NCBI RefSeq assembly: GCF_000027125.1
Contig: NC_017626.1
DNA length: 64,000 nt
Source: Escherichia coli 042
Lineage (GTDB): Bacteria; Pseudomonadota; Gammaproteobacteria; Enterobacterales; Enterobacteriaceae
Strand: one strand, 5' to 3'
A program made the position numbers. Position 1 is the stretch's first letter, and every line of letters starts with the position of its first letter. This document shows, in pieces, positions 57,901 to 63,900 of this stretch.

Positions 57901-60900
57901 ACTGGCTGATGCTCGTCAAAAAAGGGAAGAGGCCAGAAAACTTGTTGCTGCAGGCATCGATCCCCGTGAACACAAACGTGCAGTGAAAGAAGAGCAGACG
58001 AAAGAGGCTATTACCTTTGAGTCAGTTGCCAGAGAGTGGCACGCAGTAAATAAAAAATGGACAGAAGAACATAGCCGACGGGTGCTGAAGAGCCTGGAAG
58101 ATAATTTGTTCCCAGCAATTGGGAAGCGGAGTATTGATAGTTTTAGTACGCGCGATCTCCTTGTCCCTATCAAAGTAGTTGAGGCTACAGGGCGTCTTGA
58201 AGTGGCTTCGCGTCTTCAGCAGCGTACCAATGCGATTATGCGTTGTGCAGTGCAAAGCGGTTTGATCGATTACAATCCTGCTCAGGAGATGGCTGGGGCA
58301 GTTGCTTCAAGTAATCGTGTCCATCGACCAGCACTTGAACTGAAACGCTTACCTGAACTACTCCAGCGAATTGATAGCTACTCCGGACGACCTTTAACCC
58401 GTCTGGCTGTTGAGCTCACGTTATTAATCTTTATTCGTTCCAGTGAGTTGCGCTTTGCCCGTTGGCCAGAGATCGATTTTGAAAGGGCAATGTGGACAAT
58501 CCCGGCAGAACGAGAAGCTATTGAAGGAGTGAAGCATTCGGAACGTGGCTCGAAAATGCGTACTCCTCATTTAGTGCCGCTTTCTCGTCAGGCACTGGCA
58601 ATCCTTAAACAGGTTCATAAGCTTAGTGGCGAGCGCGATTTTGTTTTCGTTGGAGATCACAATCCTTGTAAACCGATGAGTGAAAATACAGTGAACAAGG
58701 CGCTGCGCGTGATGGGATATGACACTAAGATTGAGGTTTGCGGTCATGGCTTCAGGACCATGGCATGTAGCTCGTTGATTGAATCAGGGCTGTGGTCTAG
58801 GAACGCTGTTGAAAGGCAGATGAGCCATATGGAGCGTAACTCTGTACGTGCTGCTTACATTCATAAGGCTCAACACTTGGATGAGCGTAAAATGATGCTG
58901 CAGTGGTGGGCAGATTTTCTTGATGTAAATCGGGTGAAGGGCGTCAGCCCATTTGATTTTGCCAAGGAGAAATGAGCTATGGTAATGAGGTTATAGATAA
59001 GAGAGAATACTACTTTATCGCGGGTTTTTAGTGGCTGGCAGGTCTAGATGAGTAGAAAATTCAAGTAATCTACACTCACTCGACTTAAAGATGGGGCCTT
59101 TTAAAAGGTCCTGCTTTGATGCTTACTGGAATGATAACCGTCCTAATCGTTGGCGAGTTTGTTCCATAAGTCCTGAATCCATAGGTTTTCTCTCTCATTG
59201 ATATTAAGTAGCACCCATAAATTTTATTCAAGGATAAGAGATAATGGCAAATTTTTCGGTAGCTGCGAGAACATTAATTCATTTAGGGGCGGAACTGATT
59301 ACCTCAGATGAAGTTGCTATAAATGAACTTGTTAAGAATGCTTTTGATGCCGAATCTAAACGGGTTAGGATAAATGTATTCATACCTATTTCGCATTCGT
59401 TAATAGATGACTGCCTTGCAATACTCGACAATAGTAAAAAAGAGGAAGCTCTTCAAGATGATATTTTTCATATAAAGAAAATGTTAATTGAAAGTGTTTC
59501 TGAACCTTCTATTGCAGCCCAAGTAGAAGAGTTGTTGCTAAACTTAACTTCAGATTCTAGCAAGGATGAAGCAAAAAAAATAGTCGAGTCGATAAACTAT
59601 ATAACAATCGAAGATTCTGGTTGTGGAATGGATTTAGCGACACTTGAAACGGTATTTTTGGCAATAGGCACTCCCTCTAAAGTAAACTCTGAAAGTACAA
59701 AAGACTTAAATAGAAAAATCCTAGGCAATAAAGGTATTGGACGTTTAGCAATGATGAGACTTGGGGATATTGCCAACGTTACATCTTGGGTTGAACAAGG
59801 TAGTGCCCATGAAATTGAATTCGACTGGCGAATGTTTGACGATCCTGAAAAAATAATCACCGATATTGAATTTGAAATAAAACCGACCACTTGTCCAAGG
59901 CCAACACCTTCAGGGACTGTAATAAAGATAACAGCACTTAAAAGCTCTTGGACTGAAGAAAAAGTTCGCGAAAAGCTCGTGGGTGATTTTTTTAGAAGGT
60001 TACAAAACCCATTTGTGATGTCATTGGATGAAGGTAGCTCCGATAACACAAAAAAAAATAAAAAGAATAGAACTGTAGGCTTTCCAATAGATGTTCATAT
60101 TAATGGAGGAACTCGAATACCTATCGAAGGTATGAAGAAAGTGTTAACAGATTTAGTTCAGGCTGATATGGAGCTCTGGTTTGACCCAAACGGGATTGGT
60201 GATACACCTGAAGTTATTCTCCGTACGAGTTTGACTGACTACCAACGTGGAAATGAACCTGAAAATACTAATAGAACAATAGAAGAAGTAACACATGTTT
60301 TAAATGTTAATTTTGAAGCACTTAAGAAAATTGGCCCCGTAAGAGCTACTATTAGATGGTTTAATAGAGAACGGTTACGCCAGCAAGCTACTTTGCATGG
60401 TAACTGGAAAGCAGCGAAGGCCGAATTAGATTTATGGTGTGGAGGAATAGCAATATATCGAGATGGTTTTCGCATTGGATTTTCTGGACAATCAACCGGC
60501 GAAGACTGGCTGGGACTAGATAGTTCTGCTCTTAAGAGAGGAGGTTTTGCTGTAAACCGTATTCAGACTGTCGGTGCGTTAGAGATTTCAAGAAAAGAAA
60601 ATCCCGGTTTGGTTGATAGATCTAATAGAGAAGGATTGATTGAATCACCAGAATCCAATCTTGTAAGAGATATGCTGTCGAAATTTGCTATTGATGAACT
60701 TCGTCGCTACATCGGTCATGAAGGGCAAGAAGAGAAGAAAGCACGTCTAAATGATATAGTTGAAAGCGCTCCTGCAACTATACGCGCTCGGATACTGCAA
60801 GCTGAGCAAGGACTCACATCTATAAGGTCTAAGGTTCCCGCAGATGTTCAAGAATCAGTACAATCAATCGCAAATAATTTACACTTTATAAAAAATGAAG

Positions 60901-63900
60901 TAACTCGTTTTGAAGAGGCTAGCAAACTAGCAACAGAGAGACGTGAGGATATTCTTGAACTTGCTGGTGTTGGAACCGTAATGTCTGGTGTACTACATGA
61001 GCTCACTAGGACAACAGGCCACACTCGACAGCTGTTACAAAAGTTATCTAAAGATGAGTCTCCTGGTACTAAAGCTTTATTAACGAAGCTAGATTCGGAA
61101 ATTAAAGCGATCAATACGCGACTTCGACAGTTAGATCCTTTAACACCTTCTGGAAGGCATCGCAAAGAAATATTTAATTTGTCAGCATTGCTGAATACTA
61201 TATTAGAAGGGTATGGAGCTCGCTTTGAACGGCATAATATAATTCCAGAATTCAAAATCTCTGGAGTTGATGATACTCAACCTGTCGAAGTAAATATGGT
61301 ACGTGGTTTTGTTAGCCTTGCAATTGAGAATTTAATTACAAACTCGGTTTATTGGGTTCAGCAGGGGGGGAGAAGTGATCGTCGTATTACTTTAGAACTA
61401 GATGCAGAATCTAGGACATTAACTTTGCGTGATAATGGGCCAGGTATTTCTCCTGCAGATAAAGACAGAATTTTCACTGCAGGATTTACAATGCGACCTA
61501 AAGGGCAGGGTTTGGGTCTTTTCATTGCAGCTGAAGTGGCTACCTATCATGATGCGAGGCTTTTGTTGGACTCTGCTGATGAGGATGGCCGATATAGAGG
61601 TTTTGTCTTGGAGCTTCCAAAGGAATGATTATGGATATTCAAAAGTCATTTACTGAATCAAAAATTTTAAAAGTAGCGATCGTTGACGACGATTTGTCCG
61701 ATTTAATTACTATGGACGATCTGAATACTATAGACAAGGATATTGCCAGTTTGCTTGGTGATCCATCCGATCCTGATTGTGAAAGTTACCATGAACTACT
61801 AGCATCTGAAGGCTATGATCTTGACGAAATAGAAGATCTTGCTCAACCTCTTTCAAATAAATCAATTAGAGAAAAAGCTCCTGAGCGTCTAAAAAATGCG
61901 GCAAATAAAATTATCGAATTTCGTTATGATAACGCCAAGCCAATTAGACGTGTTAAACAATTACTACTGGAAGCTGGCATTTTAGAGGATAATATTCATT
62001 ATTATTTTAGCCCTGAAATACCTAATGAAGAGTTTTATGATCTTTTAGTGATAGATTACTTCTTGGTAAAAAATTCCTCCAAGCATACTTTACCTTTTAT
62101 CAAAAAAATACTCTCAACTCATGAAAAGGCACCAAAGCCTTTACAAGTTATTCTGATGTCGACTTATGAGGCAGAGTTAAAAGCAGAATTCAGGAATATT
62201 CGTCCCGAGATAAGAACTTCAAGCTCAAGAATGAGAATCATGAGCAAACCAATGTCTGATGATGATTTAGTATACTGGCGCTCTGCTTTGTTCCAGTTAT
62301 CTTCAGATCGACAATTTGTCGATGCAGTAGAAAAATTTGTTACTGAAACAATAAGTGGTTTTCAACATGCTGCACAAGAACAAGCTAAAAGATTATGGGA
62401 GCTTGATCTTCAGGCAATGGATATTCTCCATGAAGCTGCAACATCTGATAATGATGATTTTTGCCGCTATGTTGAAGAATGTCTAAGTAGACAATTATTA
62501 ACGGCTCTAGAAGAATGCTCTGGTATAAGAAAATCATTAGGTGTTTTAGGTGAATCATTAATAAAACATAGAGCTAACAACGTAATTGCGCCTGTTACTG
62601 AAATTGGTGATTCGAGGGCGGCAATTAGAACACTAATGAGGAGTATGGAATGGCGTGGGGGAAATACCCCTAGCATGACAGAGTTTAAAGACCCTAAAGA
62701 CAGAGCAAAGTGGATTCAGAAAAATCTGAGATTTGGAATGGTACTAAAATCACCAGATGATAAAAGATGGCTTAATTTAACTCAAGCGTGTGATCTTGCA
62801 CAAACAAAAGAGGATAATTTAAATTCGGTATCTCTCTTGCTTATTAGTGGTTCCTATGCTCGGCCAGTTGGACGTGAGAATGGGCAATCATTAGTGTATT
62901 TGAACACATCATTATCTGATGCAGGTAGTGAGGTTTTGTGTTGGGATGTACGTAATGTTCAAACGCCCTCAATATTTGATTTTGCTCAAACGTTTTATAA
63001 TGGCTGGTCAATTACTGGAGAGCTTCGTCTAGACCAGGCTCAAAGTATAGCTGCTTTATATAGTTCTCGAACTTTAAGGGTTGGTCTTCAAAAAAGGCTA
63101 AGTAGCTGGTGTCTTGATGGTAAAGCTTTATTCATAAACAAATTAAATAACAGCGCTCCAAGTGATAAAATCGAGGGTACGACTATTTCTGGTCATGCGA
63201 TGAATCGTGGTAAACCCGACGAAGTACATATCGATAAAGATAGCATGATAAAGCTTCAAAGAGATTTTCCTAATAGTATTAATAAAATATCTCTGAAATT
63301 ATATATGGGAATGCAGCTAAAGCCTGGTTCAAAAAACCAAGAAGAAGGTATTTTGATTTATTGTGCTGAAAAGCCGGAGAATATAGAATCACTTCGTAGG
63401 GCTATTAATGATAATGATTTTTTAAATCGTGATGTTAATCAAAATAAAGTGGTAATAGCTCTATGGCATAAGTGATTTGATTTATTGCTAATTTATCAGG
63501 TGTATTATTTTCTCAATGTGAGCTAATTATTTCTTTATTAGCTCACATTGATATCCATTTATGTTAAATGATAAGGGGAAATTGTACTATAAAATATAGA
63601 CCAGATTAATTTACCCCTTCTTTTTATTTATGGCAAATTGCGCATGAGCCTCCGCCTTCATCTTCCCCATAAATTTCATCAATATCAATGAGAGTCTCAC
63701 CAGGGCGTAGTGGGTTAATGATTTTTTTCGCTTTGAGTCTGGCTTGCCGCTTTTCAAAATCAGTGACAATTTGAGCAATTCTTTCAGGCTCCTCAAGTGA
63801 CTCTAGTGATTCACCTTTAGTCCAAGTAAAGGGAGAACCATGTTCAATTGCATTTTTTTCATATCGTTTAGCTTCTTCAAATGCCTCTGGGTGACGCTCT

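Follow-up and report, generated by a model that had tools for sequence, protein, structure and literature searches.

A histidine kinase-receiver gene pair of Escherichia coli 042 is genomically coupled to SspBCD phosphorothioation genes and is a candidate partner in phosphorothioate-based phage defence

In the SspABCD-SspE system and the SspABCD-SspFGH system (Xiong 2020; Wang 2021, PMC8092258), a module for phosphorothioate (PT) modification of DNA is encoded on mobile cassettes alongside a partner that contains an NTPase. SspE combines DUF262 with an HNH-type nickase, SspFGH comprises a Walker A protein and an FtsK-like translocase, SspE can accompany SspFGH, and IscS can stand in for the dedicated cysteine desulfurase SspA (PMC8092258). 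Here, we describe a pair of adjoining genes, encoding a soluble histidine kinase (gene 1) and a receiver-domain protein (gene 2), in a window of 64,000 nucleotides of Escherichia coli 042 (contig NC_017626.1; positions count from the first letter of the window), and we found that this pair is coupled to the same modification genes in E. coli and in distant bacteria.

Gene pairs of a related layout were reported in silico by Bellieny-Rabelo, Pretorius & Moleleki 2021 (PMC8011034), who described 644 regions in which a kinase of the composition HATPase_c_3, DHp and HATPase_c lies beside a divergent receiver, and from whose work the Pfam families HEF_HK (PF19191) and Response_reg_2 (PF19192) were created. 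The neighbourhood signal of these regions consisted of C5 methyltransferases, type II restriction-modification (R-M) genes, Vsr and HNH, and a signalling cascade that controls R-M systems was suggested. The study contains no experiment, assigns no function to the C-terminus of the receiver protein, and never mentions Ssp, phosphorothioation, PAPS reductase or DUF4007.

The pair in E. coli 042 resembles these published pairs in several respects. Gene 1 has the identical architecture of HEF_HK 'group 1' (HATPase_c_3, DHp with H-E, HATPase_c), the next gene downstream encodes a receiver protein of ~620 aa without a known C-terminal domain, and the two soluble proteins are encoded in the vicinity of DNA-modification genes. 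An earlier reading of the window, made from the sequence alone, had called the module undescribed; this overstates the case because the gene-pair architecture has been published, while the part of the claim that survives is that the present clade is only marginal to PF19191 and PF19192. Indeed, none of eight homologues of gene 1 matched HEF_HK at E<=0.001 and two of the eight did so at E<=0.1. Gene 2 matched Response_reg_2 with E=4.6e-4 (20.8 bits) over 60 of 180 model positions; at E<=0.001 this model recognized 6 of 39 close homologues and, among 14 distant Ssp-linked proteins, only the E. coli protein itself. Furthermore, the published family is tied to C5 methyltransferases, Vsr and HNH, whereas the present clade is tied to Ssp and carries a C-terminal toxin fold that had not been reported. 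Our literature searches turned up no paper that links phosphorothioation with this GHKL/kinase pair or that gives a function for it, and both the Ssp linkage and the MazF/CcdB-fold output are new relative to the papers that these searches turned up. DefensePredictor (PMC13092281) names, in a figure legend only, a system that is predicted but not validated and has HATPase as well as REC domains.

Genomic coupling to the Ssp modification genes

Gene 1 (59244..61628, plus strand; 794 aa, WP_001273407.1) and gene 2 (61625..63475, plus strand; 616 aa, or WP_000354454.1 with the later RefSeq start) are followed on the minus strand by sspD, which encodes a PAPS-reductase-like phosphorothioation enzyme. 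The window stops 377 bases into this gene and thus holds its 3' part (63624..64000, minus strand; placed by coordinate transfer from the annotation of E. coli 190693). In E. coli 190693, SspD, SspC and SspB are encoded directly downstream of gene 2 and convergent with the pair, and they represent the same modification module as in the SspE- and SspFGH-associated systems, with PADLOC matches of 1e-140, E=0 and 7e-115, respectively. SspA is absent from the E. coli island. PADLOC gave no SspE or SspFGH match for the pair, and neither is annotated within 20 kb on either side, which leaves the pair as the sole non-modification component of the 44-kb E. coli locus. We also considered whether the pair could itself be SspFGH and rejected this, because SspF, SspG and SspH are different proteins.

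The stretch is present with 100% identity in 9 of 5,426 complete E. coli chromosomes and the gene pair is, therefore, rare accessory DNA. The same nine genomes carry both the pair and this sspBCD, and no genome carries one module alone.

Is the linkage to Ssp restricted to E. coli? We surveyed every relative with fetchable flanking DNA, leaving out two truncated contigs as uninformative; a scan of genome contigs returned four loci only. Ssp genes flank the pair in all 23 informative distinct loci, in at least six gene orders and in both Proteobacteria and Chloroflexota, and in every locus examined the kinase and receiver genes adjoin or overlap each other. The receiver protein falls to 15-30% identity among these Ssp-linked loci, and the cassettes are carried by the P4-like island, a Tn7-like element, plasmids and an IMG/VR contig. 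No C5 methyltransferase gene adjoins the pair; the neighbours are SspB, SspC and SspD with or without SspA, and sometimes SspFGH. SspA is encoded in other pair-bearing loci, unlike in the E. coli island. The genomic coupling of the pair to the Ssp modification genes is thus obligatory, and the earlier view of a self-contained two-gene module did not hold, since the pair is strictly linked to the SspBCD(A) genes and the sequence-only reading had just half of the system in view.

The arrangement itself varies considerably. The convergent five-gene block of E. coli recurs in Pectobacterium, in two Pseudomonas, on the IMG/VR contig and in Shewanella, where it is cargo of the Tn7-like element. Pseudoxanthomonas and Dokdonella show a co-directional order sspB-C-D-A followed by the kinase (HK) and receiver (RR) genes; plasmid pSWIT01 of R. 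wittichii has HK-RR-XRE-sspA-B-C-D; and on one metagenomic contig HK-RR is followed by sspA on the opposite strand and then by sspB-C-D. Two weak profile matches (E=7e-29 and 7e-13) still have adjacent Ssp genes, in the orders sspB-x-C-D-HK-RR and HTH-sspA-B-C-D-HK-RR, and short contigs end in sspA or sspD directly beside the kinase gene. SspF, SspG and SspH occur together with the pair and SspABCD in Agrobacterium (two plasmids) and Sinorhizobium, and in Chlorohelix (Chloroflexota) the pair is embedded in the order sspA-B-C-HK-RR-sspD-sspF-G-H with overlapping gene boundaries. On R. wittichii pUPO218, the pair lies beside SspG and an FtsK/SpoIIIE-type gene, and SspBCD was not seen in the stretch fetched.

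Across the loci, the identity of the receiver protein is 24-76% compared with 66-92% for SspD, the latter in 19 of the 21 loci in which SspD was found. Judged by these identities, the pair evolves much faster than SspD, which is typical of conflict-facing components. At locus L017, the Ssp genes are 62-85% identical to those of E. coli, while the kinase is 43% and the receiver protein 25% identical; this mismatch between a close Ssp module and a divergent pair suggests that the pair has been exchanged between modification modules that are closely related. The family is of modest size: an exhaustive profile search among 1.84 billion representatives returned 354 clusters at 50% identity. One member comes from the A. 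calcoaceticus/baumannii complex; when the divergent alignment was used for a second, word-indexed search of proteins, the close set was recovered again and no Acinetobacter.

Several loci carry further genes next to the cassette. In Pseudomonas xantholysinigenes (locus L005, 6303-7430), a ScoMcrA-type gene with an SRA domain lies directly upstream of the kinase gene. Enzymes of the ScoMcrA type restrict PT-modified DNA, and such a gene beside a PT-writing cassette is surprising unless its specificity differs. In Shewanella xiamenensis (L015, 3016-7452), the HK-RR/SspDCB cargo comes directly after TnsA-, Mu-transposase-, TniB- and TniQ-like genes. The metagenomic cassette L014 (2928-5837) holds two extra genes (214 aa and 754 aa) between sspD and sspA, the larger with a faint DndB match, and is a further variant of the Ssp cluster. 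On plasmids, classical toxin-antitoxin and abortive-infection modules (Phd/PemK, VapBC, AbiE) occur a few kb from the pair, at L028 5273-5969 (Sinorhizobium), L025 2599-3257 and L030 11628-13291, which is consistent with defence or addiction islands.

Architecture of the two proteins

Gene 1 was identified as an open reading frame (ORF) and characterized by Pfam, alignments and profile matches to the Protein Data Bank (PDB). Its N-terminal part (aa 1-240; 59244..59963, plus strand) is predicted to be a MORC/Hsp90-like Bergerat ATPase. Pfam placed HATPase_c_3 at aa 118-203 (1.5e-7) with a further fragment at aa 21-46, a 16-sequence profile of this part matched the ATPase domains of Hsp90, TRAP1 and GRP94 at about 1e-5, and the best NCBIfam match was the BbrUII/HgiDII family of GHKL-type restriction enzymes (7e-19, far under its cut-off). 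The Bergerat motifs I-IV that characterize paraMORC/MORC proteins are all intact, with E28/N32/D35, D124xG126xG128, G161xKGxG166 and G224-T225 invariant in alignments of 8 and 16 sequences.

The C-terminal part (aa 561-794; 60924..61625, plus strand) comprises a DHp helix and a catalytic ATP-binding domain. HATPase_c was found at aa 691-793 (2e-12), HEF_HK remained sub-threshold at aa 583-634 (E=0.065, 14.2 bits), and a profile of eight orthologues matched the solved kinases ZraS (562-781), HK853 and EnvZ across both the DHp and the catalytic domains. NCBIfam gave AtoS at 3e-17 for this kinase core, every NCBIfam kinase match being far under its curated cut-off. The H-box H585-E586 (H585 codon at 60996-60998) is invariant, as are N696, D730xGxG734, F744 and G754xG756xG758 of the catalytic domain. 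Between the two ATPase modules lies a central domain (aa 241-560; 59964..60923, plus strand), which is strongly conserved in the alignments with a peak at aa 394-470 (ELDxW.GG.AIYRDGFR.GF...DWL..D...NRIQ..GA.EI...NP.L.DRSNREGL.) and matches the start of phrog_8137. The N-terminal GHKL ATPase is lacking from this family, which consists of the central domain and the kinase core; the central domain is accordingly a separable module.

Gene 2, likewise identified as an ORF, was analysed on an AlphaFold2 model (pLDDT 84). It begins with a receiver (REC) domain (aa 1-210; 61625..62254, plus strand) that contains a helical insert at aa 30-116. The receiver quintet D21, D22, D144 (codon 62054-62056), S179 and K208 is complete, in agreement with the canonical pattern of DD, D, T/S and K in a (beta-alpha)5 fold, and does not vary in any of three alignments (39, 17 and 14 proteins), even at identities as low as 15% and with the Chloroflexota member included. 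Because of this invariance across divergent alignments, it is well supported that gene 2 encodes a genuine receiver, predicted to be phosphorylatable. In the secondary structure of the model, a long linker helix and a helical bundle (aa 211-356; 62255..62692, plus strand) lead to an alpha/beta region with a MazF/Kid/CcdB-like fold (aa 357-616; 62693..63472, plus strand).

The ~390 C-terminal residues of gene 2 had been regarded as unassignable. Sequence searches agreed, as aa 258-616 returned nothing from Pfam or from PDB sequences, while the fold comparison resolved the stretch into the helical region and a MazF/CcdB-fold domain. Structure comparison values of this region were 9.5-8.1 for MazF (several species), 9.2 for Kid (rmsd 2.4 Å, 91 of 107 residues), 8.5 for CcdB, 6.9 for CptN, 5.7 for AbiQ and 5.4 for ToxN, with unrelated folds at 5.7 or below. 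A Foldseek search of the AlphaFold database (AFDB) further showed that the whole architecture of gene 2 is common to 'Response receiver domain-containing' proteins at 13-29% identity and TM 0.5-0.8, with full-length relatives in Salmonella, Xanthomonas, Acinetobacter and others. The catalytic residues of Kid are H17, R73 and D75. When the C-terminal region and its halves were compared by hhalign with an alignment of MazF and Kid, for which verified PDB sequences had been used, the result was not significant (E=0.31 and 0.11 over 16-19 columns); the best alignment (E=0.31) placed R468-L-D470-Q on R73-C-D75-Q of Kid, a register of R468-x-D470 to R73-x-D75 that is only suggestive. In the widest alignments G371, C389, D390, G409, R468 and R485 are invariant and D470 is not. 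An internal duplication of the alpha/beta region was tested and was not significant. The model thus shows a MazF/CcdB-type fold at the C-terminus of gene 2, and from this fold the region may be a toxin.

Much of the sequence-only reading of the two proteins stood up to these comparisons. The proposed combination of an N-terminal GHKL module with a histidine-kinase core was recovered by HATPase_c_3, HATPase_c and the ZraS/HK853/EnvZ profiles; of the Pfam models expected, those two were found in gene 1. The receiver hallmarks were confirmed by the quintet, and the residues singled out for mutation (N32, D124 and H585 in gene 1, D144 in gene 2) proved invariant in alignments of 8-39 homologues. 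As it had stated, we found no transmembrane segment in either protein (over 19 residues, the Kyte-Doolittle hydropathy peaks at 1.49 in gene 1 and at 0.69 in gene 2) and detected no DNA-binding domain in either. According to the alignments, the predicted ATPase, kinase and receiver sites of the pair are all intact.

Searches of both proteins against PADLOC, NCBIfam and PHROGs gave only generic GHKL/kinase matches, all under curated cut-offs: gene 1 matched REase_II in PADLOC at 5e-12 and MzaB only at E=0.0036, with no matched stretch passing the threshold, and gene 2 had zero matches in the three collections. Detocs (DtcABC), which Rousset et al. reportedly introduced in 2023, is said to be a phosphorelay defence with an Hpt intermediate and a nucleoside-phosphorylase effector. 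The present pair shares with it a soluble histidine kinase and a receiver-domain effector that lie outside transcriptional control, the output being an enzyme or toxin and not a domain that binds DNA. It differs in that only two genes and no Hpt are present, as the sequence-only reading had remarked together with the extra N-terminal GHKL module in a soluble two-component-like pair; moreover, the effector region has a MazF-like fold instead of a nucleoside phosphorylase, and the pair is tied to a DNA modification module. Among all PADLOC models, Detocs included, the pair had no significant match beyond GHKL-type restriction enzymes.

With the paraMORC/GHKL restriction and defence proteins (Iyer 2008; BbrUII/HgiDII; GHKL-Shedu VcSduA, PMC12137116) the pair shares intact motifs I-IV and an R-M-like context, but its GHKL ATPase is fused to a histidine-kinase core and not to a nuclease, and any nuclease-like or toxin function would reside in a separate, presumably receiver-gated protein. 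Unlike MazF, Kid(PemK) and CcdB as well as ToxN, AbiQ and CptN, the C-terminal domain of gene 2 has no significant sequence or profile similarity to these toxins, and unlike MazF, Kid(PemK) and CcdB it is located inside a 616-aa protein behind a receiver with no evident antitoxin gene, none being found between the pair and sspD. Canonical two-component systems differ at both ends, since the input is here a GHKL ATPase and a central domain without a membrane or PAS sensor, and the output region has a toxin fold and no DNA-binding domain.

Island setting in E. coli 042

The pair belongs to an island integrated at tRNA-Leu(CAA) (leuX; 57438..57522, plus strand), which was identified by ARAGORN and is annotated as tRNA-Leu in E. 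coli 190693. A P4-type tyrosine integrase, presumably responsible for island mobility (57722..58975, plus strand; ORF matching NCBIfam NF007246 at 1e-82), directly precedes the pair and is separated from gene 1 by an AT-rich spacer of 268 bp, in line with the placement originally proposed. In Pectobacterium, an integrase 71% identical to that of 042 precedes the same cassette. Both genes are AT-rich, with a GC content of 0.39 (gene 1) and 0.36 (gene 2) compared with 0.54 in the adjacent core. The two reading frames share the ATGA at 61625-61628, where the ATG of gene 2 lies on the TGA of gene 1, as had been noted. RefSeq starts gene 2 at the ATG at 61631, two codons later and two bases past the gene 1 stop, which gives 614 aa; either start implies that the two genes are tightly coupled. 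A sequence AAGGA at 61620-61624 has a better spacing for this second in-frame ATG than for that at 61625, and in orthologues the two genes either overlap by 4 bp or are separated by a few bases only. A promoter and terminator scan gave counts not above shuffled expectation.

The description of the pair as horizontally acquired cargo beside a P4-type integrase, for which a defence role is plausible, was borne out. Past sspB, the leuX island (L001, 30024-44232) is a mosaic of an IS110 remnant, LacI/PTS sugar genes, a fucose/ribokinase cluster and IS100, and the Ssp/pair cassette is only its integrase-proximal module. In three of the nine E. coli genomes (NZ_CP122816.1, NZ_CP122722.1 and NZ_CP146556.1), the annotation breaks the kinase and/or the receiver gene into two parts and the matches are shorter by 1-2 bases; in one of these sspC is split likewise.

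Candidate roles of the pair

Based on the genomic coupling and the predicted architecture, we favour, with roughly balanced confidence, that the pair is a dedicated partner of SspBCD(A) and most likely the sensor/effector arm of PT-based phage defence. SspB, SspC and SspD, with IscS in E. coli, would put PT marks on host DNA, as is established for the Ssp family. Gene 1, as a soluble dimer, could read a DNA- or infection-related signal tied to the PT status via its GHKL ATPase and central domain, and this signal may control the autophosphorylation of H585 by the C-terminal kinase domain, as the intact motifs suggest. The phosphoryl group would then move from H585 to D144 of gene 2, a step to which the intact receiver quintet and the translational coupling point. 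We speculate from the fold that the phosphorylated receiver and helical region would release, or restrain, the C-terminal MazF/CcdB-fold domain, and that the freed domain could act on RNA or on a DNA-processing enzyme and thereby stop phage replication. A more specific version is tentative and, in our view, possible though on the unlikely side: the pair might form a third effector class of PT immunity, in which a MORC-like clamp reads sulfur-marked or unmarked DNA and, via a one-step His-Asp phosphotransfer, activates a receiver-gated MazF/CcdB-fold toxin. Such an arm would differ from SspE and SspFGH in being, as predicted from sequence and model, a His-Asp phosphotransfer pair with a MazF/CcdB-fold output.

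Three observations weigh against a sensor/effector arm. In the alphaproteobacterial and Chloroflexota loci the pair sits together with a complete SspFGH restriction module, the presumed sensor (aa 241-560 of gene 1) has no match in NCBIfam or in PDB sequences, and the split genes in three of nine E. coli genomes could reflect toxicity and counter-selection of a costly module, dispensability, or an assembly error at homopolymers. Some lineages thus combine the pair with SspFGH, while others, including E. coli, have the pair alone with SspBCD. In this the pair is similar to SspE, which can also co-occur with SspFGH; the co-occurrence implies that the pair does not simply take the place of a restriction component, and its role could be an accessory or a regulatory one. 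A regulatory pair would sense the state of the cell or its DNA and tune SspBCD modification, or restrain or activate SspFGH, by protein contact or cleavage of the ssp transcript. The loci with complete SspABCD-SspFGH, the embedding of the pair inside the modification operon of Chlorohelix, the classically regulatory logic of two-component systems and the role proposed in PMC8011034 all speak for it. We nevertheless consider it rather unlikely, as the output region has a toxin fold and not a DNA-binding domain, SspFGH and SspE systems, when cloned, need no pair of this kind in order to work (PMC8092258), the E. coli-type cassettes have no restriction component to regulate, and the pair diverges rapidly in comparison with SspD.

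The toxin fold and the split genes also raise the question of addiction, in which the receiver protein would kill or arrest cells once the ssp cassette or the PT marks are lost, and would thereby stabilize the mobile element instead of protecting against phage. The fold belongs to the classical plasmid-addiction toxins Kid and CcdB, the cassette is always on mobile elements, and the splits suggest a cost. Post-segregational killing of this kind appears distinctly unlikely to us, given that no antitoxin gene is evident and that simple addiction would hardly call for a kinase as elaborate as one with two ATPase modules; addiction of the R-M type can, moreover, go together with defence, so that this explanation overlaps with a defence role. 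Could the pair be a defence or signalling system in its own right, found in the same islands as Ssp but not functionally coupled to it? Defence systems do cluster in islands and the published relatives adjoin C5 methyltransferases and type II R-M genes rather than Ssp (PMC8011034), but the immediate adjacency in 23 of 23 loci, which span two phyla and at least six gene orders and whose gene boundaries overlap or nearly abut, the placement of the pair between sspC and sspD in one locus, and the exact co-occurrence in nine of nine E. coli genomes make this very improbable. As Ssp systems are rare in the pangenomes of E. coli and Pseudomonas aeruginosa (PMC12421847), a chance adjacency is negligible. 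Finally, RefSeq labels gene 1 a 'sensor histidine kinase', as would suit an ordinary housekeeping two-component system. The sequence-only reading had already doubted this; the restriction of the pair to 9 of 5,426 E. coli genomes, its nature as AT-rich island cargo, the lack of a transmembrane or PAS sensor and of a DNA-binding output, and NCBIfam kinase matches far below the cut-offs mean that the housekeeping explanation is effectively refuted by distribution and architecture. Nor are the motifs chance matches, because they are invariant across distant homologues.

A dedicated partner of SspBCD(A) would matter beyond E. coli. Defence-finding tools score Ssp clusters that lack SspE and SspFGH as incomplete or 'orphan', and the pair is a concrete candidate for the missing arm across phyla. 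In A. baumannii, about 62% of genomes have an Ssp system, sspE is missing in 5,518 of 5,530, and the Ssp regions contain a histidine-kinase two-component system (PMC12421847). If this is of the same family, the module is clinically widespread, and if the Ssp regions of global clone 2 carry the pair, a major clinical lineage would have it as its prevailing partner of Ssp.

In summary, with the tie to Ssp and the C-terminal fold, what had been a vague two-component-like pair becomes a specific hypothesis open to testing, with invariant residues defined for mutation (E28/N32, H585, D144 and C389/D390/R468/R485). The pair offers a compact, soluble and easily mutated system for studying how cells read a modification of the DNA backbone. 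It would join three themes not seen together, namely GHKL/MORC ATPases, His-Asp phosphotransfer and MazF/CcdB-type toxins, and, if the proposed mechanism is true, it would be the first two-component phosphotransfer that couples an epigenetic mark of the DNA backbone to cell-autonomous immunity.

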